A stretch of 63,934 nt of DNA, counting the filler, from Collodictyon triciliatum (Eukaryota): assembly GCA_043381765.1 (NCBI GenBank). It is 4 parts of 4 records of this genome, joined end to end, with 100 filler letters (N's around TTAATTAATTAA, not from the genome) between each part and the next. Parts side by side here need not be neighbours in the genome. Positions count along the whole stretch, not along the records: positions 43,064 to 61,206 come from JBHJMP010001203.1; 3 more parts are not named here. One strand, given 5' to 3'. The position numbers and the translations under genes are program-made. Below, piece by piece: positions 11,394 to 61,306 of this stretch. Positions within the stretch are counted from its first letter, which is position 1, and each line of letters starts with the position of its first letter. The notes beneath the pieces are model-generated. The model was not told where the DNA came from, did no database searches, and was given only the letters and a program-made list of their open reading frames with translations.

Positions 11394-11938
11394 NNNNNNN
11401 NNNNNNNNNNNNNNNNNNNNNNNNNNNNNNNNNNNNNNNNNNNNNNNNNNNNNNNNNNNNNNNNNNNNNNNNNNNNNNNNNNNNNNNNNNNNNNNNNNNN
11501 NNNNNNNNNNNNNNNNNNNNNNNNNNNNNNNNNNNNNNNNNNNNNNNNNNNNNNNNNNNNNNNNNNNNNNNNNNNNNNNNNNNNNNNNNNNNNNNNNNNN
11601 NNNNNNNNNNNNNNNNNNNNNNNNNNNNNNNNNNNNNNNNNNNNNNNNNNNNNNNNNNNNNNNNNNNNNNNNNNNNNNNNNNNNNNNNNNNNNNNNNNNN
11701 NNNNNNNNNNNNNNNNNNNNNNNNNNNNNNNNNNNNNNNNNNNNNNNNNNNNNNNNNNNNNNNNNNNNNNNNNNNNNNNNNNNNNNNNNNNNNNNNNNNN
11801 NNNNNNNNNNNNNNNNNNNNNNNNNNNNNNNNNNNNNNNNNNNNNNNNNNNNNNNNNNNNNNNNNNNNNNNNNNNNNNNNNNNNNNNNNNNNNNNNNNNN
11901 NNNNNNNNNNNNNNNNNNNNNNNNNNNNNNNNNNNNNN
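11394..11938. other. Assembly gap (545 N)
   Basis: Run of N with no linker sequence. Confidence 1.
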
Positions 11939-12568
11939 CCATAAAAACCAATAGGTTGAGAAAAAAACGAGGCAAAAATCACACGACACCAGAAGGACAT
12001 CATCTTAAGGCTCGCAGTTTATTTTGGTTGCCTTGAATAACATCAAACTCTTTCACCTGCTAATACAAAAAGAATAATAATACTATAATCTAAGTGAATG
12101 GCAAGGAAAATCAAAATAAAATGATAAAACAGTCTCCAACAGAAACATCCACTTAAAGAGTTGCAGGTCGCACATAAGCAAACAAATATAATAATGAATA
12201 GAGCATGGATTTTACAGATAGAATCTAAATTGAATAATCCCTCCGTAACTTGCTAATGAATTCGGGATTATGTCTTCTTTCTTTCGGTAAAATATATACA
12301 TTTCTGAAATCATGTGTAGAAGTTGGTAAATGAATAATGATTTCTTTCAGGAATTGATTCACAGGACAGCTTCCTGGTGTCATAAACAATATACAATTTA
12401 ATTGTAATATCACAAAAAAATGATTTATTCTCGAAAAAACTATGCGTATTATCTGTTTATTTGCACGTATTTAGATGATTAATAAAAAAAAACTGAAAGC
12501 ATCAGGAAGCTGATGAAATAGTTCCAATAAAATGAAACCAATCAGAAAGGCTTCGAAAATGACTGTAT

Positions 12569-21118: not shown

Positions 21119-21532
21119 AATACAAACTACAAGAAGAAATTGTTAGAAGGGCATTTGATTACTTAATATTTGGATTACCTACCAAAGGCAATTCTTTTTA
21201 GAGATAGACCTGAGTTTTCCTCCATGTTTTCTGTCAATACAATTCGTGAATATGTATTATTATGTACTTTTATCTTGTGAGAATGCAATTACAAGTCGCG
21301 CGATTGTATTATTTTTTAAAAAAAAAAACATTTAGATGATGATAAATCACTCGATTATTTATTTCGCCATGCTAATTTTTAATGATACTTATTGTTCAAT
21401 CTGCACTAGAATAATAAATCTTATTTCATCATATTCTTGCTTTAGAATTTCTCCAACTTTAAAAAAACGAAGCCCCAAATTACAATCATTCGAAAAGTCT
21501 AATTCGAGCTTGGATACATATGGCTGTAATAT

Positions 21533-21632
21533 NNNNNNNNNNNNNNNNNNNNNNNNNNNNNNNNNNNNNNNNNNNNTTAATTAATTAANNNNNNNNNNNN
21601 NNNNNNNNNNNNNNNNNNNNNNNNNNNNNNNN
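21533..21632. other. Artificial contig join (44 N + TTAATTAATTAA + 44 N)
   Basis: The same 100-bp structure occurs three times, and the 12-mer carries stops in all six frames. Confidence 0.97.
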
Positions 21633-35424: not shown

Positions 35425-37360
<1,936 letters not shown>

Positions 37361-39403
37361 GGTGTGCGGGGAGGCTTCTCTTTCCATTCCCTCTCAATCT
37401 GCCTTGCTTTGCTTCTCCATCTTCATGATTCCGAAGATTACCAGAGAGGGTAACGAATGGCCAGATAATTTCCAGTTGTCCCTATAAAGTATAAGCACAA
37501 AAAAAAAAAAAAAAATCAAACTGGTTTTAGAGAAGGATAGAATTTTATTTCTGATTCGTCATCTGCTCTTTTGATTCTGATTGCATTGGACTGCGAGGGA
37601 AAATCACAAAAAATAAAATAAAATAAGTGAATATAAAAATGCGCTATACTATCAGAAAGAACAAGCCAGCATAATCGGATAGATACACGCTGCATCTACG
37701 TATACCCGGTCATACATCGATGTTCTTACAGTTGTGAATCATCCTTGTGATACTCACAAATGACGTGGCCTTAAAAACAAGAAAGACACAACAAGCCTTG
37801 GGTTCGAAGGTATATAACCAGCCCAGAAAGAAGGATAACCACATGCGTTTTTTTCCATATTCTTTTCTAACAAGTATTACATTTATTTATCAACTTCTGG
37901 GAAACATATGACATGCAAAATTCAATCGTAGGCCTCCAAAGTCCATTAGCATATTTTGCACGAATGTTGAAAAAATGACACCACTGTCGTTTCCCATGAA
38001 GAGCATGTAATTCCATCCTTCAACTTGAAGAACTGCTGAACATCAACACAATCTTTTTCTTGTGTCTTATCAGATAATATCACCAGGCTACAAAAGCAGG
38101 ATGCTCGTTTCAAGACAATCTAGATTCATTTTGGTGTGGCAGACTGCCGCTTTATCCAAAGGAAGTACAACCAGATTTTATACGCGACACAATTTCAAAG
38201 AAATCCAAGAACTGGAACACAAAGAGAAAAAATGTGATGAAGCAGGCGTTGAAGCAGGATTAAATCAGCAGCAAGAAAAGCAAGAAGTGGAACAAGTATT
38301 GATTTATATATAATTTCAGAAGGTTACTGCGCAGTACAAGAAAACCCATGACAACATCTACTTGAAATTATATTCAGCCTTATATTCCTAGGAAACATGC
38401 TTATTCGTTCATCTACCACGTACAAGATTTTCTATTGGTTTATCGATAGCATTTACGCCACAAAGTCATTTATTTATCAAAATATCAGGCAGCTGCTACC
38501 CAGAAAGAAATCGACAAATTATATGCTTCTATGGCCACCAAAGAGACAGTAAGTTATGAGAGAATTATTATGGTAAACATCCTTAAAATATTTTAAACGC
38601 TTAAATGGATTAGGGCAATAACATCTCGGAACCAGACACCCAAGAGCAACGTATGTAATAATCATAAAATCAGAAGAGCTGGCCCTAAATCTTTCCTTTA
38701 TTTATGTATTTATTTATGCACATTCTGCACTGTATTCAATTCGAACCCCTCTTTTAAACAAGAAAAAAAAGTAGAGTCTCCAAAGAATTCTTTTACTCCC
38801 ATATTGTCAAGCCAATACACTTATACGCTGACACCTAAGGACTTGGTTTTTTTTATTTCTACCCTTTTCTTTGAGACGAATCAGACCACGAAGTTATAAT
38901 TATTAAACAATAGTTTGCGGAAACCTTATGAAAGTCACTGATTCATGAAATGAAAGATGATTCATGCCGAGACAGCATAATTAATGACATTTAATATTGT
39001 AATAAAAAACCCAAGGACCTTGGAGAAATATTGAGGTCTAATAAAGTTAAGTCCCACAAGAAGAAAGGCGGAGATAAAGCGCTAGAATTTACCGATTATT
39101 TTGCGCGAACAAATGTCGGGTTTGGTGGAATTCCTTCATACTCTCAGAAAATCGGCCGCTCCATGGTCAATTATTACCAGGTTCATTTTATTAAAAAAAA
39201 ACTGCGAATGATTTTGTAACAAAGCACTATTCTATAAAACTTTCTCAATTATTAAAAATAAAATCGATATTTGAGTTAAATGGAAAATATTGACACATTC
39301 TGGTGTAGCGATTATGGAGACCCCAAGGCCGTGAAAATTTTCAACACAAGAAGATAAAAATCAAAAGCCCCAAGGAAAACTGAGAGGGAATCGATATGAA
39401 TTC

Positions 39404-42963: not shown

Positions 42964-43063
42964 NNNNNNNNNNNNNNNNNNNNNNNNNNNNNNNNNNNNN
43001 NNNNNNNTTAATTAATTAANNNNNNNNNNNNNNNNNNNNNNNNNNNNNNNNNNNNNNNNNNNN
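42964..43063. other. Artificial contig join (44 N + TTAATTAATTAA + 44 N)
   Basis: Same structure as the join at 21533. Confidence 0.97.
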
Positions 43064-43101
43064 TTCTTCTTCTTCTTCTTCTTCTTCTTCTTCTTCTTCT
43101 T

Positions 43102-43131
<30 letters not shown>
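43064..43131. repeat. (TTC)n microsatellite
   Basis: About 22 copies preceding the TCATAG acceptor. Confidence 0.97.
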
Positions 43132-43132
<1 letters not shown>

Positions 43133-43139
43133 TTCATAG

Positions 43140-46100
43140 CGATACGCTATCAGAACGAGAGGAATTTCGGTCCGTGGTTCTTCCTAGATTGAGGGATAGA
43201 TGTAGAGCACTTCGCTTGGACATTATTGAGTGTGATATCCGATATGGTGTGGCTGCGCTAAATGCTATGCACGGAATTCCTCCTAAAGGAGATGATGAAG
43301 TGTCCTCTACAATAGTAAAAACAAAACAAAATAAAATAAAATTTCTGCCATCCATAAATTCCTTTACCCTTTAATCCACCGCCACATTATGACAGTCAAT
43401 TGTCCTAAAGTATCAAAAAAATTATTATTTTTTTTTTTTAAAAAAAAGGTTCTGCACTTGTTTTGTAAAATAATTTTAGTCTACTAGGACCATGTCAATT
43501 ATATTATTCCTTCATGGCAATCATAGGGAAGCGCACAAGAACAGGCAACTTTTCTGCGAATATTAATGAAAGAGTTTGAATCGTGCATGAGTTCTACCGC
43601 TGGATTAAGTACCAAGATGCCACACAATATGTTTTTCGTATCGTTCATCGGCCAAAAATATGGATGGATACCTTCTGAGGTTCAAATATGAATCATACTA
43701 TCTATACTGTACTTTTTTTTTGAGTGAATGAACACTTTTTTTTTAATTATGGCCAGTGCTTAACGTTTCTACATAATAAATTAGGAAGTGCTGAATCGAA
43801 GTTATGCATCTGAGCTCTGGCATTGGAAATCAGGATTCTCTCTGATGGCCAGTAATTTTCACCTTGACTCGAATTTTTTTTTATTTGTGACAATCCAAAA
43901 AAAGAGAAAAAAAAGAGGAATCTTTTCTGTGTAAAGAATGTATAATATATAGAATATTAATTATACCATTCCTTCTTTGTTTATCTAAAGTGGAGCTCCT
44001 CAATGCTGTTTACATGAGACCAAACCCTAATGGCTTCATCTATATTCGTGGTGATGGTTTTATGAATCATGAGTCTACATTTGAAGGATTAAATTCTTAC
44101 GAAAAAAGAAGAAGAGAGACAGATTTAGCGTTGCAATTTGAGGATTCTAACGGAGTATATTTCCACATAATCTGAAAATGATTCGTTATCAACTTTCATA
44201 TTATCATGATGTTTGCACGTTCCTTTCAATCTTGATAATTTATAGTCAGATGCCTTTTTTTTTTTTTTTTTGGAACTGAAAATGTGCCGATGATTTAATA
44301 AAAATAATCATTATTGGTTGACGTTGTTAGGGGCGTGCAGACGATAGCTTATCGACTCCGAAAGTAGACATTACCAAAGAGTGGAAACATAATATTCTAA
44401 TTGAGAAATTAAAGAAAAGGTTCTCGCTTAGATTTAAGTTCAATCATTAAAATAAAACTGTATTATTGTATTCACTCTTTTTTTTTTTATTCACTTTCAT
44501 TATTAAATAGAAGAATTCCTTCAAAACATACAAACACTTTTCTTTTCAAAAAAAAAAACAACAGAATTCCGGAAAAGAACATTGTAGACGGTTACAAATG
44601 CATCTTCGGTGGAACTGAAGATGATGGAAATCCTCAAAGATTTGTGGGTCCTGTGAAGTATACCATTAAATTAACAGGTACAGCGCATATAATTATAAAT
44701 AGTTATAAAATATGAGTCAATCTATCTCCAGGGTACAACTTTATTCTTTCAATGTACTAGATGCTTTTTTTACAGGCTGGCTTAGTAACTATATACATAT
44801 ATATATTTGTACTCTATCGTTATTGCTTTTTTCATGAGTCAGGGTTTGATCAACTCTGCAGGCAGATCGAAAATCAACTTTTTGAAGCATTGAAAGAGTA
44901 CTTACACATATTATAAGGAAATTTTTTTCATGATTTTTATGTTTTTTATGTTTTTCGCAGCATACTTTTTCCTTAAAATCTTGAAATTTTCATCTAGATA
45001 CTTCCCCATCGATTTGAAAGCTGGTATTAATCGCAATTTGCAATTAAAAGCTGACTTGAATCATGGCATCAAAAAAATTCTTTATGCAAATATTCCAAGA
45101 GAATATATTACCAACAGAGTTGAAAATTACATGACCACCGGAACTTGTTACGAGGAGTCTGAAGTCGAAAATAGGTGACCTAATAATTTTTTTTTTGCAC
45201 TTACCAGCCAGACGCAATTTATTCATATAATTAAAGTATGCACATTTGTCCATGATATTTAATTTGCTTTGCCAGTGACTCTCCGGACGAGGGGTTCCAC
45301 CCTCTCTATATCATCGGGGATGTAGGTCAGTAATTCGCCTTTTTTTTTTTTTTTTGTCACAGAGCTAATTCACTGAATTTTACCTCAATATAAAGATAAA
45401 AAAAGAGAGGAAATGTCCATATGGGGTCGGTATATACCCTTTTGTAATAATTACGATGATAAACAGGGGCAGGAAAGTCACATATTGTCGCATCCAGCTA
45501 CCAAAAAATGCAAAAATCATCGAGTGTGAGAATTATTCTTTACTGAAAAAAAAACCGTTTTACATTATAAGCATAATTATAATTTAATCGTAATCGCAAT
45601 CACCAAAATTATCTCCATAATTATTACATGATTTTAAATTACGTATTTGCTTCGTTTCTACACAGCTTTTCATATTTAACGTAATCAAACCATTTGTAGC
45701 CACCTAACTTTATCGTGCATTTTTCCACTCTCCCTGTATTTGACAACCAACTAAGTTCTCTGTTAGAAAGGTATCATTCTTTATCTCGATATTTTTCATT
45801 TGATTTTTATTTTTATAATTTTTTCTTGATACATTCAGATTCATAAGCACTTCTTTGAGCATTTGTTCACTCACCGAGGAAGAACATCTTCAATTGGAAG
45901 GGAAATCAAAGACAACATATCATTTATCTCAAATTCTGCATTTTCTGATTGATAAAATTCCAGTTCATAAACCCACACTCTATATTGTCGATGGCGCTGA
46001 CCAACGTAATAACTTTCAATTCTTTTTCTTACTTTTTACATACATTCGTGGTTTTTTCATGTAAGCTTTTTATCCATTTTCTTACCTTACTACAGAGTAT

Positions 46101-49100
46101 TCCTGCTCAGAAGGAATGATATGGGTGATATTCTTAATTTACTCAAACAAAAAATTAATTTGGGAAACGAACATATGAAAATTAGTGTGGAACCAGACAG
46201 GAACTTTAGATCTTAGTTGGATACCAATCAAATGGAAAAACCCTGCTGTGCGATTTATCGTTACTTGCCAAACTTCGTCTCTCCTTAAACTTCATTTTCA
46301 TGAAATTGGATATGAACCATTAGTGGTCAATGTCCCTGGTTTAAATATGGATGAGAGGGTGAATTTTGTGAAAGCATATCTCACACGGATGAACTACTCA
46401 CTTTATCCATCAATAAAGGAAAAACCAACGGTAATATCGATTTATATTGCTATATTGGATAACCAAAGCCAACATCTTCACCATCCTGCACAAAATTGAA
46501 AGGAAGAATAAAAAAATTGCTATATTGGATAAAATTATGTTATCTAACATAATTCTATTACTTTTTCTGATGATTTATCATTTTCGGTGATTCCTCAAAA
46601 TTATTATTAGGCGGTCGTCATACCTGGCTTCTTGATACTCAGTGAAAAGATGATACTGCAATTAGCAGCTACAAAAAAAGCGGGCTCTCCCATATGGTTG
46701 CAAAGTGTAAATATTCATTGCTCCCATGATTAGATTATGTTTACAATATGATCATTCAATATTCCCACCATCCTCTGGTTGCGTTTTGTAAAAGAATAGA
46801 AAGAAAATTATTTTAACTCGCTATTTGTCACAGGCCATTGCTACACTTCATCTCCGCTGCATTCCAGGGACCAATAAATCTGAGCTTCAATCATATTATA
46901 ATGAGCTTCCATTTGACTTTGAGGAGCTTATATCCATATATATGAGTATTCTTGGTAGCAGGTAAATTTCTTATATTAATTTTCATCGGCGTTTATGACT
47001 TTAATTGTCTTATTCCTGAGGTAGTTTATAAATTCGAACCAAAAAACACAGGGTCAATAGCAAGTTACTCAAAAGTGTGGTTACTTCACTTTTATTCAGT
47101 AAATATGGGCTGCAAGAAAATGAGATCAGGTGAACAATATATATATATTGATGTATATATTGATGTTACGAAGTATTTTGTAAGTCAATACGATGGTGAA
47201 ATGATTCAATTATTTAAATTGTATGCTTTTCAATTTTTTTTATTATAATTCGGGATTTTAATAAATTTAATTTGCAACACCGCTGATATTCCCCTCATAC
47301 TGTTTGTTTACGTTGTAAAGAGGCTTAAATGGTTCTATCGACGGAAATCTTCCTGCGTATGATTGGGCATTACTATCAACTGTACTTTTTATATTATCGA
47401 TCTATACTTGTAAAAATATTTTAAGAAAGCTGGGTTGAGTAATGATTATGGTACTAAATATAATGCCTCTTGTTCATGCCGCAATTTTTTAAAACGCAAT
47501 ATTTTCTTTATTGATTAGCAGCCCTTCAAAATTAATCATTGCTTTTTTTTTTCATTTAACAGGATATGAATAGATTCCTATTGAATTGTTGCTCGATTGA
47601 AGGCTGCAACGGGTTTTACATATGCCATTCCAAAGTCAAAACAGCTATAGCAACGAAGTATCGAAAGTTTATTTGTGGCAATAAGCATTTAGTATTCGAC
47701 CTCAAGAATAACATTTCTTAACTATTTTTCTGTTTTTCTCTTTTCTTTTCTTTTTCTTTTTTCTTTTTCTTTTCTTTTTTCTTTTTTCTTTTTTCTTTTT
47801 CTTTTTCTTTTCTTTTTTCTTTTTTCTTTTTTCTTTTTTCATCCAACCAACTTAGATTTTATGGGGATTCGAAATATGTCATGACCTGCAGGCTAACAAA
47901 CCATACAGCCGAGGAAGATCTTTTTCATAAAATTACATCACAAAGTTCCCTACCCATAAAGGCTCACCGTTCTTTACGTGCGTATTACCAAGGAGCATTA
48001 ATGTCATGGAGGGATAAGGTTCCATTCCTGTTTCGTCAAATTATTATATATTGTGAAATTAACGCAAATAATCTGTTCCTTCAAGGCCTGTCGCATTGTA
48101 GTAATTGTGATGCCTCTTGTATCTTGCATCCTCATAACTCTCGTTCGTAGATGTCGACAGAGGAAGTTATTAGGCCGATTGAATTAGAAAAGTATCACAT
48201 GGCTTGCATTTTTTCTCCTCCCCAGATTGATATTGCTGTAAAAGTTAGACCGTTGACCCAAAGGTTTTATTTAATATTTAATCTAGAATAAAAGTCAAAT
48301 AAGGGAGTTTTCTTTTTAACTTGTGGTACTGGAACATTTATACCCATCTACCACCTGAATAACTAGGTTGATGGTTCAGAACGACTTTTAAATAATTATT
48401 CGATTATAGTCTTATTCAAGTTGTTCAAGTTTCTGTTTACGATACGTTTTAAAATATCCAAATTATACACTTTCACCAATTAAAATATATACGCATCATT
48501 AGAGAAGTTAACGAGCACACGAAATTATGCTTCTCAATGAGGCATTCCCAAGTATTTCTTTACAATTATGAGAAAGCCAATTTTCTTCAAACATTTTGTT
48601 TTGATTTTCATATAAGACATGATACATGGGAGGAAAGTCGGTCCAAGTGAGCAAATATATCGAAAAATAATATCATTTGAACCGTTAATGTAATTGAATA
48701 ATTGTATCATATTTGTTCCATGAAATCCCTGTGATGTCTCTTGATTATGATTATTTCTGAATCATTTGTTAGATTGCAGAAGGAATCATTCTACCAGATA
48801 TATGATGCGTTATGCGGTACTCTTTTAAATGACAAGAGCATCACACTTTTTTCAGTGGGATACGAGGTTTGTCCCTTTAAGAAAGCAAGAATGGAAATGA
48901 AACCTACTCTGGCATTAAGCATGCACCTATCAATTAACTTCATAGATTATCTTTCTCATATTCTAGCAAATGCAGAGAACTCAACATTAACAATTATATT
49001 CAAAGGAAACTGACAAAAATTTCACCATGTTTGGGGATCAAGTAGACGACGGATTTGCAGTTTTTGTATTTGATGAAATTATTAAAGATGTTCAGGTTAT

Positions 49101-52100
49101 TTTAAGGAAATGAACTATTATTATGAAAATATACATGGTTTTAAAATCATAAATAAGCTAGCCCTCCCATTCTTTTCAGACCTTTTCAAATAAGAACATT
49201 TTATTCACATGCTCAACTATTACTTTGCTATACTCCCTTCTTACTTTTCTGCTTTCATTCACGGATATTAGAGAAATGGAGACACGTTTATCGCATCAGC
49301 ATCATTCATCGAAATTTACGAGGAAGAAGTGCGTTTTTACTTACTTTTTTTTTTAATTTACCCTAATTGAAGAAGTCGGTTTTATACTAATCCACAATTT
49401 TAATATGTAAGTCGTTTACATTTTCTAATGAAAGATTCTTATTTATGTAATGCGGCAGATTACCGATCTATTTCACGATTTAAATCCTCAAAAAGCTAAC
49501 ACATCAAAGTAACTTACAGTCTTTATGCTTAATTGAATGTTACACTATCAAGCCATCCTCTAATATTTTAATATAGCTGATTAATATTCTATTGCGTGTC
49601 TAGAGTTCTCAAAATATATGATGCACGTCATGGGCAAGTCCAAACAATTTCTCAATTGACGGATGCATACTCGGTTAACGTTAAGGAAACATCATCGGTT
49701 CGAAGATTTATTCGGCAAGTCATTGGCAACCGCACCAGAGAGGTTGATTTATTAAATAACAGAGTGGGAAAAATAAACCTTTTTCTCAATCCCGCTACAT
49801 TTAATTATTTTTTTTCAAATATTAGATGTCAAGCTCTGGAATTTCTCCGAACAGATATGTGAATGCAACGATGATATTTCAATTCGAAATTAAACGAACA
49901 AGAATGCCGAAAGGAGGCAGTGCCAAACCAGTGCAGGTATAATAAAAGCATTAGATATGCTGATAAGAATTCAATATATATGATTTAATGACGCAAACTG
50001 TGGAGTCTCAATGTCAAGATAAAATTGCATAACTTATCTAGAATCCAAACTCTATCTTGGTGACATTTGTCGACCTTCCAAGCTTAATCTTTCTCCCTTT
50101 GAATATATCTCTAGAAAGGGTGGTAAGTATTCATCGAGCTTTCCTATAAATGCCCTTTTAATTTGTTTGTTTGTTTGTTTGTTTGTTTGTTTGTTTGTTT
50201 GTTTGTTTGTTTGTTTGTTTGTTTGTTTGTATGTTTGTTTGTTTGTATGTTTGTTTGTTTTTTGAATTATTAGAAAGAATTGAAGATCAAAACGTTTTTG
50301 ATACTGCGCTAACTTTTACATTACTGTGACACGTAATGCTAAAGAACTATACAGAGTTCAAATATGCCGTGAATAGATCTCTTTTATGTTTGATGAGATG
50401 TCTAAAGTCCTTATCTGTGGGTAAAAAGCCAAAGTAAGTAATCAACAAGCTTCCCTATATCAATCCAACATACGATACGTTATCGACTCTATTACAATTT
50501 GAAATTAAATATAAATTTTTACAAGAAATTGACTCAGATGATTCCATCGTTATCTAATAACTTAAATTAATTACTCGAGTAATGAGCCTGTGCGAGGAAA
50601 TTTGGTCGTTAATTATCACGTATGGCTCGTATTTCTCTTCATTTTTTCATTAAGGTCAAATAATGTTAATTTCGAATTTCTTTAACGTGTGTCATTTTTT
50701 TAAAATTTATACTAAATCACTCGTTTAAACGCTATCCTATCCATCTTGTAATCTGACTAAATATCTCGCGATACATTTTTAGGAAGCAAAACTCACCCAA
50801 TTGATTAAGGACTCCATCGATGGAACCATCAAATCTTTATATATTCTGCATCTGGGGCCCACAACAAAAGCGTCAGATGTATTTTTCTCATTGGAATTGA
50901 AGTTTTCTTTCTTTTTTTTAAAAAAAAAAATCGAATTTAGTTCTACTTTAAACGATATTCACCACCAATTTTTCTTTCTTCGCTGAAAATGCTTTCTGTG
51001 CGTTTTTCGTCGTCACTTTCTGAATCGAAGTGAATTCGTATGTCCTGTGCATCTACATAAGTTATCGTAGCATTCAAATGATTCCGTTTGTCTATAAAAT
51101 TCAGGATAATCACCACACTATGAGGGTAGGAAATCTCATTAAAAAGACAAAAAACTCTCTTATATTATCCGGAGCTGGTATACAAGACCAGGACATTGAT
51201 TGGGAGGATGAGTAATCTGTTTATTATTAGCATTATTAGTATTATTATTTGGTTCATTATTGTGAAATCCTTGTATTTGAGTCTTTTTTTTTAACTTCTG
51301 GTGAATTTCATTTATGTTCGCCTTTTTTTTAAAAAAAAAAAACCTTATTAACCTAATTTATTGCGGCTGAAGCGGCCATACAAACTTACATGCCTGTGCT
51401 TTACTAGCGTTGTCGGGGACTCGAGTGTCGAGTATGGTGTCCTGCAATCACTAAGATCTGGGGATGTAACGACATTGACTCTTCGTCCAGGAACTGTGCG
51501 CAAATTCTATTCTATACGTGCAATAGCTCATGATAGTTGCATATGAGATTGTAAATATGAAAAACTTCTTTCCTTTTGTTTAACATATTTGCCTACCTAC
51601 TTTCATTGAACATATTTAATTTAACGCTCGTTTCCATTTACAAAAAAAATACATAAAATAAAATAAAGATTACAAAGCAAAATGCCGAACTTCTTCGCAA
51701 AGTTCTATCACAAAATTCAACAGTGAACCTTCTTCGGCTACTCCCAAGTAGCGACCTTTCTGGCGCAGCGAATGAGATAGAATATCCAGTCGAGGTTCCC
51801 ACAAACTACCTCAATATGTCTTTATTTGTCCTCGCTCTTGTCATATCTTAGTTTAATTTCTGAATGCCCTCCTCAAATTTCATGCTTCATTTATCTTACA
51901 GGTCATTAAAGTACTGTCCGAATTTATTTCGACGTCGAAGATTTTTAGGAAACTCATCATTCAAGTCTTATATCATACCATGAATGCATATCAATTATCT
52001 TGCTATATCTATTAGTAAATCTACTTTATTCCCACTTTTGTATTATCAAAGAGTTTTTTTTATCAATATCTTCTTTTTCATACTGTCAAATTTACTTTTA

Positions 52101-55100
52101 ACCTCCCACTTTTGATTCTCTATTGACGCAAAGGTATCATTGGATGACTCCTGTATGGTCATTCTTACAGATGCCATGAAGTCTTCTCCATCCTTAAATC
52201 ACTTCCACTTGCAATGTCCAAATGTTGGAATCAAAGGCGCAACAGGGCTATCCGCTGTAATTATATATTTGATTTCCTTTTCGATTATTATTGTTGGTTT
52301 GCTGTGTGTTCATATATTCTATTTTATTTTATTTCGTTTTAGTTTTAGTTTTAGTTTTAGTTTTAGTTTTAGTTTTAGTTTTAGTTTTAGTTTTAGTTTT
52401 AGTTTTAGTTTTAGTTTTTTTGTTCTTTTTTGTTCTTTTTTGTTCTTTTTTTGTTCTTTTTTTGTTCTTTTTTTGTTCTTTTTTTGTTCTTTTTTTGTTC
52501 TTTTTTTGTTCTTTTTTGTTCTTTTTTTGTTCTTTTTTTGTTCTTTTTTTGTTCTTTTTTTGTTCTTTTTTTGTTCTTTTTTTGTTCTTTTTTTGCTCTT
52601 TTTTGTGTTGTTTTGCTTTGTTTCAAATAGAAGAGAAATAAAAGTAATTGCATAAACTTGGGAGCTGCTTTTTTTTTTAATCAGACTCATGTAATGTATC
52701 TACTTATTTTCTTTTTCTTTTTTGGAGATTTTAAGAGACGCTAAGGAACCATCACTCAACTCTCCTTCAAACAGGCACTTGGCCAAAATCCAACAATAAA
52801 AAAAGTCACAATCAGACAAGGATATGTAGGGCTCTGGCAGGTCCCTCTGGCTAGGTGGCTTACTTTCCACTCTCATATCGTCTACTTGGATCTTTGTCAC
52901 CAAGATTTGACAAATGGAGGGAAATCTCTGGATTGTATAAAGTTAGTATCTTAGTAAAATAACCAAACACGATATTTCATCTACATAGATTGAACACGAT
53001 TTATTTTGAACGAATACGCTGGGGTTGATGTTACCCCTATTTTCAGCCGTCAGTCGCTTCATTCTATGTATTCACTCCGCTCTAAACCATACAACAGGAA
53101 ACTTTCTGCCTTACTTGCTATACCCTCGTCCACCTCGAGCCTGTTTTTGAGAAATACCAACCTGGGGGTTGATGCTATATCTTTGCTGGTTGAAGGGGCC
53201 TTGAAGAACCCATTACTCGAGGAACTAGATCTTGGAGAAAACGATATAGAAAACGCCCTGCAGTACATTTTCAATCTCGTGATGTACCATCCAAAGCTAT
53301 CGATTTTACATCTCTCTGGGACCCCATTATCCTTTCAATCTGCCACGAAGCTTGGAGAGACATTATTAAAAGTATTATATGAAATATTTTTTCCGCCTTA
53401 CAGAAAATCATAAGATTATTGAATTCTAGTAAAGATATCTCTATTCCTTGATTCAAATTACCCGTTTTAATAATATATTGTTGAATAGAGTCAGGCAATC
53501 AAAGAAGTTAGACTCAGTGTTCGTTTCCCTGTCAGGGCCATAAAGTAATGTCCGACAACATCGTGAATAGACCAATATATGTTTCTTTTGTTAAATAAAT
53601 TCGGGGAATCCAGATATTTCAGGCTAATAAAATTTTTATTTGTGAACCCACAGGGAAAATACAATTACCTCAATCAACTGGTCCGAAGAAACCTTTACAG
53701 ATTCTGATGTTTGTTTATTAGCAACATTGCTTTATGGAAACAAGTCTGTTGAATGCGTTGAATTATGCAATACTGTAATCGGACAGGATGCCGGACTTCA
53801 ACTCGCAGATGTGGTCTATCAGCATCCTGGAATTAAAAAGGTATATGCAACTATTCTTCAGACGAAACAAATACAAAGCAATATTTGAACAAAAAAATAA
53901 CAATATATAATGATCCTCTCATAAAAGCTTGATTGTCTCATCATATTTATAAAACTTGTAGATTTCTATTAATCGTCAAACTGTTATCGACGTACACGGA
54001 ATCCGAAGCAATTCAATAAATCAAATAGACTTGAGGATTTCAGGCTCACAATGGGGCGATACCGATATTTTTATTGTGTGTCACCTTCTAAAGACAAACA
54101 CTTCTGTTCACCGTCTATTGACCCATCAGAGAAAATTATCTGTCACCGCAGCTTATCTTCTGCGCGACCTACTTTCAGAAAAGTATCCTAGCTCATCACA
54201 ATATTCATGCTATGATTCTAGTTCAATTTTTTTATTTATCATTATTATTTACTGTTGTTTCATTTCACTCGATGTAAATGAATCGTTATATTGTGATATC
54301 TATAGTGTACATATTGAGAACATCACGTACGGAGAAAGAGCATTGATTCCCATCACAAAATTTCTTCAAAATCGCCCGGCTGGGAAACAATATGTTAATT
54401 TCGTCGATGTCTGTGCCATTCTATCGCATTCATGTAGAATAAAATCAATTTGGTGAGTAATTCAAGCTGGTATTTATTATTTTTAAATAAATCAGGGATT
54501 CGGTAGCATCGATGCTATTGTATGGTCTGGGTTTTTGAAACAAAATCCGGCCGGGATAACTCTTCTTGACCTAAGCAACTCAGGTCTGAGGAATTTAGCT
54601 ATTAAGCTAATTTCTGTTTCTTTTTCTTTTTAAGTGTTCTTTTCTTTTAGTCTTTTAAACCCTCTATTAAGCGTAGTGCAGGAAAATAATTCAAAAGAAA
54701 TCTATCACTCTCATAAAAGTTCATATTTGAATCCAAATCGACTGCGCGTGTTGCTTACTTTTTTTAAAAAAAAAACATGGTAGGAATTTCAATCCGTGAC
54801 ACTGGGGCGTTATCGATTGTGGAGGCTCTCATGATAAATAAACAGATCAGAACTTTGGATCTGTCATGTAACCAATACTTAGTCCTTTCTAAAAAGAAAA
54901 AAAAAAGAAAATAGCCTGGGTTACTTACGTGCCATCAGATTCTAAATATATTTCTTTTATACTTTATTCTTTGTTGAATTTAGGCAATACTACACCTTCT
55001 TCGAACTTAATAAATCTCATCTATGTTAACAAACGTAGGTAATGGTCTGACCGACAAAAGTGGTGTGGCAATAGCACTTGTGCTTTTGTCCAATATGTTC

Positions 55101-57072
55101 GTGACTGACTTAAATCTATCATGTACGAGTTGGTCTATGCTGCGATTACATTTTCCAATAATACAATGTGTTCTTTCCATAACCCAAGGAATTTAATAAT
55201 CCCATCTTTTCTCTTTTCAGTCAATTGCTTGGGTGAGTTGACTGCCGAGGCACTAGCTTCAAGCCTTAAGTCTAATAGCACATTGAAGATTCTCGACTTA
55301 TCTTGTAAAATCTAATTGCTAACTTTATGAACAAATATATTAAATAATGTATACTTCAATTATTATTTTAAAAAAAAACATATGTTGTTAGTCATATAGA
55401 AAACCATGCTCATTGTCAGTGATTCTAATTTTTGTCTAAAAATAAAAAAAAATAATACGACAAAGTCAATTTTATGGATGACACCTGTATGGCTCATCTT
55501 GGAAATGCTATCGGTGGCCATAAAGCCATTGAGCTACTTGATATGCGAGGTTCTTAATATTTGTGGAGTATAAGAAACATGAAAAATTAAAGAAATAAAA
55601 AAATGTCAAAGCTATTTTGTACGAATCCGGTTCGAGTAGTAGCAATACATAAAATAATAGTCAATCGTGTATTTTTCCATTATAAACCTGAATTTGTCCA
55701 TCACTTAATGACAAAAAATATAACAAAATCAGGCAACCATATTGGCGAAAAAGGAGCTATTTTCATAGCATCTATGTTGAAACAAAATCAGACACTACAG
55801 TCTCTCTCGCTTGCTGGTGCGTTCAAAAGATGAATTGCAACCTTGCCTTTCCCTTGATCGATTGCTATCATATCAAATCAATAATTTTTTATTTAGACAA
55901 CTCTATTTCCTTCGTTTGGGAATATGATTTTAATCATCTTCGTTTGAATCCATTTGATATGAACGTATGTACCCTGCTAAGCCGAGTTACTATTTTAAGG
56001 GAACTCCATCAAAGAGAAAGGAATTGCATCCTTTGTAGATGTTTTCAGGTCAAATCATAAAATAAAGTCGCTGGATCTATCATGTATGATTTTCTTTTTT
56101 TCTCATTCTTATTTCTCCAGTGGCCTTTTTTGCAACAGATAAGAATTAGTGCGACAGAAGACACAATAGGGTTAGCAGATAATAATTGATATTTTGGTTA
56201 ACTATCTCATATAGACAACAAGCTTGGTGATAAAGGATTTACTATGCTGATGGAATCAATTCGCTATAATCATGGAATAGAAGTCTTAGACCTTGAATGT
56301 ATTCATAACATTAATATTACCGTTTCCATTATTGTAACCTCTTTTTTTTTTTTTTAGAATGTGTTGTGACATCTTTAACCATAGGAACCTCTACATTATT
56401 CTTCTTATCTCTATTATTATTGTTTTTTTTATTCTTCCTTTCAATTTTGTGCAGGATAGGATATGTTGGCTTTGGTTCGCTAGCCATAGTCTATTATTTG
56501 GATGAAACGCTTTCATATCTTTATATTTTCACAGGCAATAACATAACCGACAAAGCTAGTCCGTTTTTGTTTACGATGATTCAAGAAAATCGCACTCTTC
56601 GCGCGCTGAACATATCATGTGAGATATCTGCTTTCCTCAATAATGAATCACAGTTTTAACTCTTTCTTTATGGCCTTTTGAAATTTATATCACGGAAGTC
56701 AACACGCACAAAAGGGTTTAAAATTTTCATTAAACAGAGGATTTAAATATTTTTCAAATATCTCAGGGAACAAATTTACTCCGAGAACCTTTCTTTTATT
56801 TCAGACTGCCCTATCAAAAGGTGGACTCGCTTGCTTATCCACCCTTTTATTGGAAGGTTCGTTTGTTTTTAGTTTTGTCCTTTAAATCTTTGTGCTATCC
56901 CTCCTTTTTTTCCTTTTTTTTCATAAAGTTCGTGATAAAATATCTACCCCATCCATCACTTATCATTTATTTGGTAATTTATTTATTGATTAATCAACTT
57001 GGAAGAAAAAAAAAAGAAAAAAGTTGATGACATGAAGGTGACCAACTCGGGATGATAACACCACTGCATTGA
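43140..57072 (+). CDS. 5'-truncated DUF4062-like + NACHT-type P-loop NTPase + RI-like LRR protein (NLR-like), many exons
   Basis: N-terminal DTLSEREEFRSVVLPRLRDRC..ECDIRYGV and FFVSFIGQKYGWIP resemble TEP1/NPHP3/NWD proteins. Walker A IIGDVG|AGKS is split by an intron near 45326-45465, and Walker B is TLYIVDGADQ, followed by LSWIP..VRFIVT. The C-terminus has 28-aa LRRs such as GNHIGEKGAIFIASMLKQNQTLQSLSLA. Putative stop is TGA 57070-57072. Exons between about 47000 and 51600 are less certain. Confidence 0.78.
46463..46515 (+). mobile_element. Short poly(A)-tailed retroposon insertion, copy 1 (intronic)
   Basis: CCAAAGCCAACATCTTCACCATCCTGCACAAAATTGAAAGGAAGAAT(A)n flanked by the 17-bp direct repeat ATTGCTATATTGGATAA (46446-46462 and 46516-46532). 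Confidence 0.9.
47738..47840. repeat. (CTTTTT)n intronic pyrimidine tract
   Basis: Directly visible. Confidence 0.9.
50162..50260. repeat. (TTTG)n microsatellite, intronic
   Basis: About 24 copies, two of them TATG variants. Confidence 0.95.
52337..52605. repeat. (TTTTAG)n followed by (GTTCTTTTTTT)n, intronic
   Basis: Directly visible compound array. Confidence 0.95.
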
Positions 57073-57252
57073 AATAGGTATCTCTGGGGTCTCTGAGCAC
57101 GAATTGTCTGAGTTGTACCATAAGCTGAAACACCTTGCGCACAAAAAATAAGTATGGTTGAATGTACAACTTCTTAACTGCCTATTAGTCTTTCTTTTCT
57201 TTTTCTTTTCTCTTTAATGATGAATGACTAAACTTCTATCTTAAATAAAATT

Positions 57253-57307
57253 AGCCAACATCTTCACCATCCTGCACAAAATTGAAAGGAAGAATAAAAA
57301 AAAAAAA
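57253..57307 (+). mobile_element. Short poly(A)-tailed retroposon insertion, copy 2 (intergenic or 3' UTR)
   Basis: AGCCAACATCTTCACCATCCTGCACAAAATTGAAAGGAAGAAT(A)n, identical core to copy 1, flanked by the 15-bp direct repeat ATCTTAAATAAAATT (57238-57252 and 57308-57322). Confidence 0.9.
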
Positions 57308-57602
57308 ATCTTAAATAAAATTTCTTGAAGAGTAAATCTAGTCTAACAATTTATTGAATCTATCAGAGCTACTCATTTTTCTACATCCTTAAAATGGTAC
57401 TACTCAAAACCTCATAAATATTAGGTGGTCAAAATTGATGAATCTGGCCCTTCTGGGGAAAAAAATAAATACAATAAAGATGCAGTAACTTTAAGAAAAA
57501 GTCTAATTATCAGAATGATTAATGATAGAAAGGAAGCGAAAAAAAATTAAGAAGGTATTTTGGAGGAAGAAATGCAGCCAAAAATGCAACAGATTCTCTC
57601 CT

Positions 57603-60600
57603 CTAATGGTCCGAGTCGGAAAAAAATAGTTTCAGGTCCTCGATTTTGAATTGGTGGCTGTCCGAATCACGCACACTCAATGCATTTTTCGCGATAGCTG
57701 CTTTGTTTTGCTGTAGATGCAAGATTTTCTCCTCGATGCTTTTCTAACAAAGTTTTCATTTTGATTCATGCCACAATCCCGCCAAGAATACGAGTTTTAG
57801 CACGAAAAGAATATAAAGAAAATTATTATTTTTTTACATGCGCTGAAGAAGAGTAAGAAATCCACACACCTCGATGATGAATCGCGTTACTACTACTGGT
57901 CGAGTTTGGTTGACGCGATGTACTCTATCAATTGCTTGTTCCTCTGTAGCAGCTGGTTATATTTACCAATTTTGAGTGTGAGGTACTAGTGACTTGAACT
58001 ACGTTATATATATTATGATTGAAAATTAAAAAAAAAAAAAAACACTGGAGCAAACAGCCTCGTTATACAATACTAAGAATATCTGACTCACCTCCATAAA
58101 TTTATCGAATCGAGAACAAGTAAGAAACCCAACGAATGAGGTATGAAAAAAAAAAAGGAGAACGACGAAATGAAATGAGACTTACGATTCCACCACGGGT
58201 CCATCAAGAAAACACGTGAAGCTTCTGCAAGATTGAGTCCGACTCCTCCGGCTTTCAACGAAATCAGCATCACCCTAGGACAAAAGTCAGCTACCTCAAC
58301 TCTCAACATGAATGAATTTTATGTGCTTGCGAGAATGATTTGGAGGCACCTCACAGATGGATCTGCCTTGAAATGTTTAATTGCTTGGTCTCTTTGGTGA
58401 GAAGACATTCTGCCGTCCAGTCTTTGAAACTTTATCAAACTTTTCGTCATCACATTTCCTATTAAATCCAGCTTGAAGGAAATACGGATTAGGGGAAATA
58501 CTTGGTTATCACTGTTGTCTTTTGAAGTTTCTTTGTGTACTTGGTGGTGTCGAACCTCAGGAAGCTATTAGAACTGAGAGACAGATACAAATACTACTCG
58601 AAATGAATACTGTTAACTAGGTTTAAAATTTATACCATTCCAGTCCATTGCGAAAACACAATAGATTTTGTGGTGGGATCAATTTTCCATGTATCATAAA
58701 GCTCTTTCATTAAAGCTTGGGTTTTTGTGCTTGATTCGCATATGTGATCCATCTGTAGTCAATAAGTGCGTTCACATTACCAATAAGTAAATAAAAAAGA
58801 AAAAAAGGATGTACTTGCGTAGCATTTGAAGCATTTGAATGCAAACAAACAAAAATCATGCTATTTCTCGTGCCATATAATTTTGTGTCATTTTATGTAG
58901 ACAGAAATATAAACAGACCCGTGTCTCCATTTGTTGGCTAGCCTTGACTGGTGTAATCGCTGTACGATCGAATGGATAGAGCACGATTCAGTAGGTATTT
59001 CATTTAAATTATACTTCAATTTGTTGATTCGTTGAGTCCAACTCGAAAATTTTTGGATGAGAATAAAATGCAATACTTGAAAATAATCATGTATCTAATG
59101 AGTGATGTATATTTATGATTGATTACATGACCATGGAAGTTTGCAAATAAGGCAGATTTCTAGTGTTTTGCCGATCCAAAAAAGAATTAAAAAGTGTAAT
59201 GCCATAAATTAAAACTTAAAAAATGCAAATAGCAAATTTATTTCTACTATGGATCAGTAACATGAAGTTTGATATGTGATGTTCGGACAGGTGAGAACCT
59301 TGGTCACACAATTCGATGCATTCTAGACAAAAAGTATGCTTGCATGAGGGCATGTACCCACACTCGACTGTGTCTATGCATAAAGCACACCTGATGTTAT
59401 CTACAAGTAACTCGTCCGCTTCGAGATTCTCGAATGATGACGACACTGCCTAATGGGTTGCATATCTGATCATTCACTTCTTGTTTAACTTGAGCATTTA
59501 TTATAAAAAAAATAACAAATGGTTAACTTTGGATAGGTTTCGAATTGTATATTTCCTTTTTGCTCTCTTGGTTCTATGCAATAAAAGTTCATTATCTTAT
59601 AAATATGAAAAGCTATGAAACCTGAAAAGAATCTGAAGTGGGTAATATCGGAGTTCTTGCATGCATTTGTGTCGGTTTATCGCGGTCAAGGAGGCCAGAA
59701 ACAGGGAGGTTTCGACAGAGATTGGGATGGTCGCATGCTTGTCTTAAACGTAGAAGTAAATCCAAGATAAGGTTGTAGTTTTTGTAGACAGAATTTGACT
59801 GCATAATTAGAAGAAAAAGGCGGATATTAATTTATTTGAATTGGAAGCACAAATAAAATTACATTTGTTCTAGTAAAATGATTTTTTCAATTTTCATTAC
59901 AAAGTAAATTTGAAAATATACAAAAAGCAAGATTTTTTGAGCATATAGTTGAGAGAAACAAATATGAGGAAATATAAGTCGTTGGCTGTTACCTCAACCA
60001 TGGATTTGAATCTAAGTTTGGACTCCTTCCATAATGAATCATAAACCTTCTTCTCAAACTCTTGGAATTGAAGCTTTCTTATGTGAACCTGACAAAAAAA
60101 ATAATAAGGATATGACATCGTTACCTTTTTTTTTTTCAGTTGCTGGTGGAAAAATCTCCAAAAAGAAAAAAAAGAGTTATGTTTTAACTAGAGGTAATAT
60201 ACAATGAGCGGTAAACTTTGCTTACAACTTTAGGTGCCATCTTTATGATTTCTGTATCTTCAACTTTTTGATCTTTAGTTCTTCTCAGGAGAATAGGCTG
60301 CAGTAGCAACTAGTTCATTAAACAAATGTAAAAATTTATTCAGGTGAAGAGATACTTCTTTCAACTAAAATCCATATGCAGGCTATTCTTGGTCTGTAAA
60401 GATTAATAGAATTGATATACTTGCAAAGCTCGAAAGTTAATCGTTCCAGCAGAGCGAAGTGGTTTTACAATATATTGGATCCAGTATTCGTGACGTCCTG
60501 TGGTTTATTTCAGAGTAATAGCAGGTAAATTACAAAATTTTAGATCATATCTTTTCGATAGTTTTTTCCCCATATTACATCTATCTGTAAAATCTACTCA

Positions 60601-61019
60601 CCGAATGGCTCTACTCTGAGAAATTTTAGTAAGCTATAGAGATCATCAACCTTATTTTGCACCGGTGTACCTTTTGATTGCACGTTGAGTTCATGAGAAC
60701 AGTTTCCAATCATGAAATCAGAGGCACACAAAAAATTGAAGAGGAAAAAGAAAAAAAATGTACCTGTTAAGCACCATCGAAAAGTGGCATGCAAACCACA
60801 AGTGGCTCTGGCACATCTAGTGGTGTGATCCTTTATGATGTGGCACTCATCGAGAATAACTCGGTACCACCTTTAAACCCAAATATAAATTAATATATGA
60901 AAAGAAGCAAAGGGACAATTATATTATATGTAAATGAAATAAATGATTTATTTCATGTGGTGGCTCTTTTAATGTTTTAAATATACTTCAATTTTAGTAA
61001 CGGAGAATGTTGCTGGCTT
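57603..61019 (-). CDS. 5'-truncated SNF2-family ATPase with RING finger (RAD5/RAD16/HLTF-like)
   Basis: Contains [48 protein letters not shown], a C3HC4 RING ([17 protein letters not shown]), [52 protein letters not shown] and [17 protein letters not shown]. Stop is TAG 57605-57603. Confidence 0.93.
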
Positions 61020-61206
61020 CTGATTGATTATTTGTTTTTTAAAAAAAAATTAACATTTAAAACTGAAAACGAAGAAATTTATTATGCATCGTCACCAGTA
61101 TGCATTATTGACAAGCAAAAAAAAAAAAAAAAAAAAAAAGGGAAAGAAAGAAAATAAAAAAATAAAAAAAATAAAAAGGAATAAAAAACAAAATTATTAC
61201 ACAAAC

Positions 61207-61306
61207 NNNNNNNNNNNNNNNNNNNNNNNNNNNNNNNNNNNNNNNNNNNNTTAATTAATTAANNNNNNNNNNNNNNNNNNNNNNNNNNNNNNNNNNNNNN
61301 NNNNNN
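61207..61306. other. Artificial contig join (44 N + TTAATTAATTAA + 44 N)
   Basis: Same structure as the other two joins. Confidence 0.97.

Follow-up and report, generated by a model that had tools for sequence, protein, structure and literature searches.

In the protist Collodictyon triciliatum, eight consecutive exons of exactly 84 nt, followed by one of 90 nt, encode one leucine-rich repeat (LRR) each and appear to form the 3' end of a large gene that would also encode a NACHT NTPase and a kinesin-like domain. These exons are located in a stretch of 63,934 nt of the assembly GCA_043381765.1, referred to here as the window, whose positions 43,064–61,206 come from record JBHJMP010001203.1. 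A preliminary description of this DNA proposed that the exons can be skipped, duplicated or swapped in frame, forming a cassette system that diversifies the surface of a sensor. The analysis presented here leads to a different view: it is very probable that this is an old and frozen one-repeat-per-exon array of the ribonuclease-inhibitor (RI) type, since the repeats are old and correspond one to one with those of related genes, as in a stable domain and not in a shuffling cassette. Judging from sequence identities and not from a rooted tree, the array would have kept its nine repeats in order since before a gene duplication that is common to this lineage and Diphylleia. Within the limits of the data, its splicing also appears to be constitutive, and it appears to be under purifying selection that includes its concave face.

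Structure of the array

The eight exons (E1–E8) are found on the plus strand at positions 54784–54867 (E1), 55039–55122 (E2), 55221–55304 (E3), 55466–55549 (E4), 55733–55816 (E5), 56000–56083 (E6), 56215–56298 (E7) and 56535–56618 (E8). A script check revealed that each of them is exactly 84 nt long, with AG before it and GT after it, and that all are open in the phase-1 frame, i.e., 2 nt, 27 codons and 1 nt; together with the RNA joints described below, this bears out the positions, length and 1/1 phase given in the preliminary description. The exon reported to follow them (E9, 56767–56856, phase 1-1) has indeed 90 nt, and encodes the last, capping LRR. Upstream, the 88-nt exon E0 (54496–54583, plus strand, phase 0 to 1), with the joints 54408>54496 and 54583>54784, leads into the regular array. 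Downstream, a last coding exon of 24 codons and a TAA is predicted at 57078–57152 (plus strand) from its AG acceptor and a frame open to the TAA; this junction has no RNA, and the resulting spliced tail resembles that of the Diphylleia isoform P0151. The window is AT-rich, with GT..AG introns of approx. 90–240 nt, and it contains 54 segments on the plus strand and 96 on the minus strand that are 84 nt long, bounded by AG and GT and open in phase 1; among these, only the eight array exons match the repeat profile, at the protein or the DNA level.

LRRs of the RI type have a period of 28–29 residues, in which LxxLxLxxN/CxL is followed by a variable part that forms a helix. E1–E8 agree with this definition, with one repeat of 28 residues per exon and conserved Leu and Asn positions. 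The unit follows the pattern x-N-x-[IL]-x-[DE]-x-G...L...L..N..[IL]..L-[DN]-L-S, and closes with L-[DN]-L-S, as seen in E1 (GISIRDTG...TLDLS). Position 25 is Leu in all eight repeats, Asn occupies positions 2 and 19 in seven of the eight, and positions 4, 22 and 27 are L, I or M, also in 7/8. The codons split by the eight introns ahead of E2–E9 encode C, F, F, G, G, Y, C and W, immediately before the Asn. The placement claimed earlier for every intron, in the codon that precedes the conserved Asn, is correct for these eight introns but not for the start of E1, where an Ile follows the split codon and the Asn of the repeat lies two residues upstream, inside E0. According to this arrangement, E1–E8 and E9 would encode the regular C-terminal part of an RI-type LRR horseshoe, in which each exon would supply one repeat length, i.e., the conserved Asn, the helix and then the β-strand LxxLxL of the next repeat, with the phase-1 intron cutting the codon just before the Asn.

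Transcript evidence and splicing

Run X1 contains 22% of the sampled words from 51600–57200, and its contigs on 52700–57400 leave out GT..AG introns precisely, which indicates that they derive from spliced RNA. The RNA contigs include 13 GT..AG joints, three of them also present in X6, a run of the same study. Into and within the array these joints are 54583>54784, 54867>55039, 55122>55221, 55304>55466, 55549>55733, 56298>56535 and 56618>56767, i.e., the junction into E1 plus six of the eight junctions among the nine array exons. Both junctions were seen for E1, E2, E3, E4 and E8 (the latter in X1 and X6), while E5 and E9 are covered at the 5' junction and E7 at the 3' junction (X1 and X6). 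Three joints were reported 2 nt leftward with the remark that a cut at +2 fits as well, e.g., the 3' joint of E4 as 55547>55731, and a contig of X6 extends to 56858 at the end of E9, which is ambiguous with the GT opening the next exon. Once spliced, 52775–57152 forms one open frame ending in TAA. In the exons the window differs from X1 at eight sites, and all of these differences (8/8) are synonymous and in third position, which confirms the frame and points to purifying selection.

Within the array, only E6 and the junctions on either side of it lack RNA cover, and the uncovered stretch of X1 (55840–56153) was not used as evidence. A profile built from the remaining seven 84-nt exons found E6 with an E value of 2.9e-6, at rank 8 of 2611 six-frame segments, and the spliced protein aligns without gaps across E5-E6-E7 to two transcript-derived relatives; the joints 55816>56000 and 56083>56215 are supported by these two results. 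The gap is also where one could place a regulatory skipping of one 84-nt exon in a minority of transcripts, as in exon 5 of human NLRP3. The exonic modularity of human NLRs is described as a precondition for regulatory splicing (PMC6642158; here and below, statements from the literature refer to the available parts of the cited sources), and a join of E5 to E7 would read GAC, a sense codon. Nevertheless, such skipping seems unlikely. No positive evidence of it was obtained; the depth near E6 is low (3–8) and one contig stops 7 nt short of the exon end, so that the gap looks like a coverage drop-out; the transcripts of both relatives include the equivalent of E6; and the isoforms of these relatives differ by truncation at exon borders, not by skips. 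More generally, the exon skipping anticipated in the preliminary description did not appear in the junction data, given that no exon-skipping joint was found among the contigs of X1 and X6 on 52700–57400, and none of the four isoform pairs of the relatives (0/4) shows an internal in-frame deletion in multiples of 28 residues. These contigs drop rare variants, hence the absence of skipping is weak evidence and rare forms are possible.

Age of the repeats and their conservation in Diphylleia rotans

The proteins encoded by E1–E8 share on average 27% identity (range 7–46%); for the DNA the mean is 42%, and the highest pair reaches 57%. The array introns, of 98–236 nt, match each other only in A/T-rich low-complexity sequence. 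Leave-one-out profiles recovered six of the eight exons as the best non-training match; the divergence of E2 (E 32) and E4 (E 200) was too great for this, and both have RNA-confirmed junctions. When the eight exons were used as a protein profile against the 2611 six-frame segments of the 64-kb window, no further copy of the LRR exon was detected, and likewise a DNA profile detected no other copy on either strand of the window (best other match, E 1). In Ectocarpus, where LRR exons are shuffled, inactivated exon copies are described in introns and on the other strand (PMC3341825); with no decayed copies in the window, this hallmark is absent here. The layout of the array would be the fossil of ancient tandem duplications of an exon-plus-intron unit.

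An exhaustive HMMER search with the exon at 53099–53371, which precedes the array, gave 172 proteins at E ≤ 1e-3, with P0001 (2209 aa, E 1.2e-29, 49% identity) and P0004 (2042 aa, 42% identity) as the best matches. Both come from the Diphylleia rotans transcriptome (EukProt EP00002), where they belong to the Trinity genes DN5385 and DN7757, with several isoforms. When approximately the last 640 residues of the window protein, of P0001 and of P0154, a full-length isoform, are aligned, there is only one indel, of one residue, and the identities are 365/636 (window and P0001), 298/640 (window and P0154) and 296/638 for the remaining pair. These values (57% versus 47% and 46%), in a comparison without a rooted tree, suggest that the split between the two Diphylleia genes is older than the divergence of the window lineage from Diphylleia.

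Within this region, the nine regular repeats correspond one to one, in the same order and without indels, in the window gene and the two Diphylleia paralogues. The identity to the matching repeats of P0001 and P0154, respectively, is 54% and 43% for E1, 57% and 64% for E2, 79% and 54% for E3, 39% and 46% for E4, which is the most divergent repeat, 71% and 57% for E5, 50% and 46% for E6, 57% and 54% for E7, and 29% and 43% for E8; E9 was also aligned to both relatives. In the repeat matrix the mean of the diagonal is 0.54 for P0001 and 0.51 for P0154, versus 0.29 and 0.28 off the diagonal, and in 7/8 rows with each relative the highest value belongs to the matching repeat.

Positions predicted to be on the concave face and ascending loop are identical in 29/48 cases with P0001 and in 35/48 with P0154. 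For core positions the corresponding values are 39/64 and 40/64, and for helix and loop positions 54/112 and 39/112; the residue of the split codon is conserved in 6/8 and 7/8 repeats. Since the concave positions are no less conserved than the others, the predicted binding face would be conserved and not diversified. The diversification of the sensor surface suggested in the preliminary description finds no support in these counts, nor in the differences between strains mentioned above, all eight of which are synonymous.

Regarding the introns, the tails of the Diphylleia isoforms (P0004, P0152 and P0001 versus P0154 and P0151) start exactly at three exon borders of the window, i.e., at the 3' borders of E7 (P0004), of the exon that ends at 53371 and of E9, and the residue at two of these breakpoints fits a retained phase-1 GT intron. 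This coincidence is a hint of conserved intron positions, and suggests that these positions are common to the window gene and Diphylleia.

Alternative explanations

The proposal that these symmetric exons act as a cassette, whose skipping, duplication and swapping yield diverse sensor surfaces as proposed for the brown-algal ROCO genes, starts from real properties of the array. All nine exons are of phase 1-1 and multiples of 3, and the forward joins from E0 to the last exon keep a sense codon in 55/55 cases; any skip is therefore safe for the frame, just as the preliminary description had asserted. The idea is also in print for the 72-bp LRR exons of Ectocarpus and kelps, alternative splicing included (PMC3341825, PMC11378527). 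The free swapping that was also put forward is possible in 58 of the 64 any-order joins of E1–E8, but not in the other six, where joining a T-ending exon to E1 creates the stop TGA. A cassette is nonetheless highly improbable in view of the old and dissimilar repeats (27%), the lack of inactivated copies in the introns or on the other strand of the window, the equal number and order of repeats in three genes, the conserved concave face, the 8/8 synonymous differences, and the lack of skipped joints and of isoform pairs with deletions in 28-residue multiples. The number and order of the repeats, which could have varied across paralogues, did not vary among the three genes compared; a fixed order under purifying selection, which the preliminary description had itself opposed to diversification, is largely what was found.

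Still less credible is the independent gain of introns at equivalent sites of an intron-less LRR array, which could account for array introns without detectable mutual similarity, and for introns in flux, as shown by the interspersed repeat inserted in at least one of them: nine independent gains would all need the same codon position and phase, the accepted route to such arrays is the unequal crossing-over of exon-intron units (PMC6564038, PMC3341825), and at a repeat identity of 27% a loss of intron similarity is expected.

Several points weigh against the interpretation of the array as the long-conserved end of a NACHT/kinesin-like/LRR gene. The RNA evidence comes from one transcriptome study (runs X1 and X6), it leaves E6 (56000–56083) and both its joints uncovered, and it consists of Logan contigs, which drop rare variants, so that skipped isoforms of low abundance could exist. 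The sequences of the relatives come from transcriptome assemblies, and their intron positions were deduced from isoform breakpoints and not from DNA. One of the eight rows in each repeat matrix lacks its maximum on the diagonal, and selection was judged from residue identity and synonymous counts, not from the ratio of non-synonymous to synonymous substitution rates (dN/dS). With respect to the rest of the gene, Pfam searches with single exons or open reading frames (ORFs) of the window gave no NACHT, DUF4062, NB-ARC or significant Kinesin match, and the exon borders upstream of the array were guided by homology, in a chain that over-extends in places.

The host gene and its domains

Residues 300–2193 of P0001 are collinear with positions 43138–56858 of the window (tblastn), which would make the LRR array the terminal part of a single gene of 14 kb or more. 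This gene, of approx. 14 kb and roughly 50 predicted exons, would extend on the plus strand over at least 43140–57152, with the array as its C-terminus. The predicted order of domains, i.e., a DUF4062-like N-terminus, a NACHT NTPase, a degenerate kinesin-like domain and the LRRs, is well supported by the comparison with the relatives. The 5' end of the gene is cut off at 42964–43063, an N stretch joining two parts of the window; a tblastn search of the window with the first 200–305 residues of the relatives produced only noise, i.e., approximately the first 300 residues have no counterpart in it. In the region where the 5' exons would be expected (42964–43135), two runs of 44 N are followed by a (TTC)24 microsatellite, and paired 44-N runs are likewise found at 21533–21632 and 61207–61306, which are also N stretches joining parts.

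The DUF4062-like N-terminus and the NACHT/NPHP3_N-type NTPase are assigned to approx. 18 predicted exons at 43140–48018 (plus strand), collinear with residues 300–985 of P0001 by tblastn. The Walker A motif would be split by an intron at 45326–45466 (predicted splice 45325|45467), and Walker B is found at approx. 45980–46005; the spliced stretch 45118–46005 aligns to P0001 with a score of 257, and both G-x2-G-x-GKS and hhhhDGxDQ are intact. In P0001 this region matches NPHP3_N (5.4e-8) and NACHT (1.7e-6) in Pfam. P0001 and P0004 both show NPHP3_N/NACHT, then Kinesin (E 3.8e-34 and 8.7e-42; model 1–325/327) and then LRR_6, for which the LRRs of the relatives reach E 1e-21. Among the 150 matches listed, a kinesin region is present only in P0001 and P0004, and a NACHT region only in these two and in one weak match. 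When profiles made from the relatives were compared with the homology-guided model of the window, the NACHT region scored 359 bits, and the Pfam-validated kinesin profile 263 bits over positions 2–359 of 359; there is some circularity in these scores, since the same proteins had served to guide the exon chain. The motifs of DUF4062, STAND and kinesin were read in ORFs before the relatives were found, and the Atlas leads (NPHP3_N/NACHT/NB-ARC, 0.85–0.87; DUF4062, 0.80) agreed for NPHP3_N/NACHT and DUF4062. In the transcripts of the relatives, the NTPase and the LRRs are part of one polypeptide; the window is collinear with them, and its own RNA was placed from 52700 onward. The sequence is consistent with an NLR-like gene of the STAND type, with a NACHT carrying Walker A and B, and LRRs.

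Between the kinesin-like domain and the array, a linker and the first irregular LRRs are predicted at 51105–52292 (plus strand), with approximate exon borders, from the homology-guided chain and from collinearity with residues 1404–1575 of P0001 (tblastn); no RNA covers them. These are followed on the same strand by six exons with irregular LRRs, confirmed by RNA joints and in one open frame, at 52775–52941, 53098–53371, 53489–53544, 53654–53840, 53962–54182 and 54306–54408. The phases of their introns alternate between 2 and 0, so that only the array itself is symmetric. The best PDB matches of the exon 53099–53371 (91 aa) are DRC5 (E 3.6e-8), TCTE1 (1.5e-6) and ribonuclease inhibitor (3.1e-5), with weaker matches to NLRP9, NLRP14 and NLRX1. 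The resemblance to DRC5/TCTE1 and ribonuclease inhibitor, proteins without a NACHT or kinesin domain, is at the level of the LRR consensus and does not imply orthology. With Pfam LRR_6 this exon scores 19.1 bits (E 0.0013), below the cut-off of 23.4, and two of the 84-nt exons taken singly give E values of 0.019 and 0.2; the weakness of these single-exon scores is explained by the 24-residue model, which straddles the intron.

The gene models have known defects: the homology-guided chain misses the Walker A exon (45276–45325), an ab initio exon chain over-predicted micro-exons, and a stricter version of it lost real exons. Because the chains over-extend or miss exons, the coordinates upstream denote approximate regions only. 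Single-exon Pfam matches to Trm5_N, FaeA, DUF6434, Pas_Saposin and Hanta_Gn-H (E 0.03–0.15) were disregarded as chance, and a homologous-protein search for longer proteins with the 91-aa LRR exon and the NTPase ORF found nothing.

The kinesin-like domain

This domain is assigned to approx. 11 predicted exons with approximate borders at 48151–50878 (plus strand), on the basis of the kinesin profile of the relatives and of weak piecewise matches. Compared with PDB, the piece 50783–50983 matched kinesins in 8/8 cases (best E 0.14; Pfam Kinesin E 0.077), and KIF3C was the sole match of the piece 49272–49367. The other seven of the nine pieces gave no kinesin match in PDB: five matched unrelated proteins with E values of 0.4–1.6 (14-3-3, an oxoacyl reductase, an oxidoreductase, an EF-hand protein and G protein-coupled receptors), and two gave nothing.

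The catalytic motifs of kinesins are the P-loop GxxxxGK[ST], switch I SSRSH and switch II DxxGxE. In the window, no GK[ST] is present at the P-loop position of the kinesin-like domain (48773–49095), whereas P0001 (aa 1153) and P0004 (aa 1056) retain a G-x4-GKT P-loop; the patterns SSRSH and D.AG.E are absent from the window protein and from P0001 and P0004 alike. An early guess for the switch II exon, SKLNLSPFEY in frame 0 at approx. 50.07 kb, proved wrong, since the homology-guided chain takes another frame at 50042–50122. The loss of these catalytic motifs indicates that the kinesin-like domain is probably not an active motor.

Comparison with known systems

The one-LRR-per-exon layout is already known from the human NOD/NLRC genes, the brown-algal ROCO genes and Tetrahymena, and the array described here is a further case. 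Such exons are common for RI-type LRRs adjacent to a NACHT domain; the order of domains in the gene is more unusual. The parallels invoked in the preliminary description are indeed in print, namely the human NOD/NLRC genes (PMC6642158) and, in Ectocarpus, the LRR exons of ROCO genes and the TPR exons of NB-ARC genes (PMC3341825).

In human NOD/NLRC genes one exon encodes one 28-residue RI-type LRR, while in NLRP genes and RNH1 two repeats are encoded by each 171-bp exon (PMC6642158). The window gene shares with NOD/NLRC the 28-residue RI-type repeats, the frame-preserving exons with a fixed border at the β-strand and the location of the LRRs C-terminal to NACHT; by repeat type and exon layout, phase and codon position aside, this is the closest pattern to that of the array. 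Unlike them, it belongs to a protist, starts with a DUF4062-like region and has a kinesin-like domain inserted between NACHT and the LRRs, and no alternative splicing was seen in its contigs.

The ROCO genes of brown algae have LRR exons of 72 bp in phase 2 that encode repeats of 23–24 residues, next to a ROC-COR GTPase (PMC3341825, PMC11378527). Intense shuffling, inactivated exons, positive selection on the concave face and several splice variants are reported for them (PMC3341825, PMC11378527). Both these genes (Ectocarpus, Saccharina) and the window gene have one LRR per symmetric exon and are candidates for intracellular receptors linked to an NTPase; in contrast, the window exons are of 84 nt and phase 1, with RI-type repeats of 28 residues, and the hallmarks of shuffling are absent from the 64-kb window.

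In Tetrahymena the LRR exons, with 90 bp and in phase 2, number nearly 50,000 and are found in young species-specific genes, and these arrays are attributed to tandem exon duplication (PMC6564038). As in Tetrahymena, the exons of the window array have an exact length and a single intron phase, but here there is a single old array in the window that is conserved across species. The proteins of Diphylleia rotans with NACHT/NPHP3_N, Kinesin and LRR_6 have the same order of domains, approx. 1,900 collinear residues and the same nine LRRs; they differ in that their C-terminal identity to the window protein is 57% and 47%, and in that they keep the kinesin P-loop lost in the window gene.

Other features of the window

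A short interspersed repeat of approx. 50–58 nt that ends in an A-run was found at 56423–56490 (minus strand), 46461–46516 (plus strand) and 57250–57303 (plus strand). Two copies are in introns of the gene and one is just downstream, and a 35-nt core is 100% identical in the three. In the runs of RNA contigs this repeat is very deep, with bin means of 282 and 507 and local peaks of 1352 and 2512, and many of the contigs over it continue to either side in sequence unlike that of the window. The repeat may represent the 3' end of a retroposon or of a short interspersed nuclear element (SINE); an Rfam scan of 54000–57400 at E ≤ 1, the region with the copies at 56423–56490 and 57250–57303, gave no match.

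A run labelled as a subsurface metagenome, X2, contains 151-nt contigs that are identical to the window at 53210–53360, 54468–54618 and 55051–55201, intron included, and one variant contig whose differences (6/6) are all inside the intron 53372–53488. Among metagenome contigs, 595 protein-pattern matches were obtained and none was confirmed, and an exact 30-mer from exon 6 had 0 matches.

The gene has a tail-to-tail neighbour at 58088–59449 (minus strand). With matches to Helicase_C and to a C3HC4 RING finger in its exons, this neighbour looks like a helicase of the SNF2/RAD5 type. Elsewhere in the window, an uninterrupted ORF of 2857 codons (12569–21142, minus strand) has 19 WD40 stretches, i.e., several β-propellers, 31 Cys-rich Ephrin_rec_like repeats (Pfam E 1e-217) and a hydrophobic C-terminal part in its translation. 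A long ORF with Sel1 repeats (8583–11978, minus strand; Pfam E 8.5e-80) is broken by a 545-N assembly gap at 11394–11938. A GC-rich ORF at 36349–37143 (plus strand) matches a pyridoxal phosphate enzyme of Cys/Met metabolism (Pfam E 1.1e-65), and is located in an island of 50.7% GC (36001–38000) with surroundings of 32–43% GC.

Function and significance

The order DUF4062-like, NACHT, kinesin and LRR is known here only from the window gene of Collodictyon and from Diphylleia rotans. In the literature searched no description of a NACHT-kinesin-LRR architecture was found, and a plant paper, in its available part, merely lists the kinesin motor among the InterPro domains present in NLR proteins (PMC11734081); the architecture of this gene may thus be undescribed. 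A possible, and still tentative, view is that these genes form an undescribed NLR-like family, with a DUF4062-like region, NACHT, a dead kinesin and RI-type LRRs, that works as a STAND sensor tethered to the cytoskeleton, in which the horseshoe would recognise a conserved partner and the motor-derived domain would anchor the NACHT switch to microtubules or to the flagellar apparatus. Independently of this view, the horseshoe would bind a conserved partner or ligand, autoinhibit the NACHT switch, or both, and would not be a rapidly diversifying sensor surface.

The array provides a clean case of one RI-type LRR per exon outside animals, backed by RNA and by homology, in a gene that contains NACHT. 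It also illustrates that exon modularity alone does not amount to diversification, given that the number and order of the repeats and their concave face were kept through a gene duplication and through the separation of two species. Genome scans should therefore be cautious in labelling symmetric repeat exons as 'cassette' immune systems.

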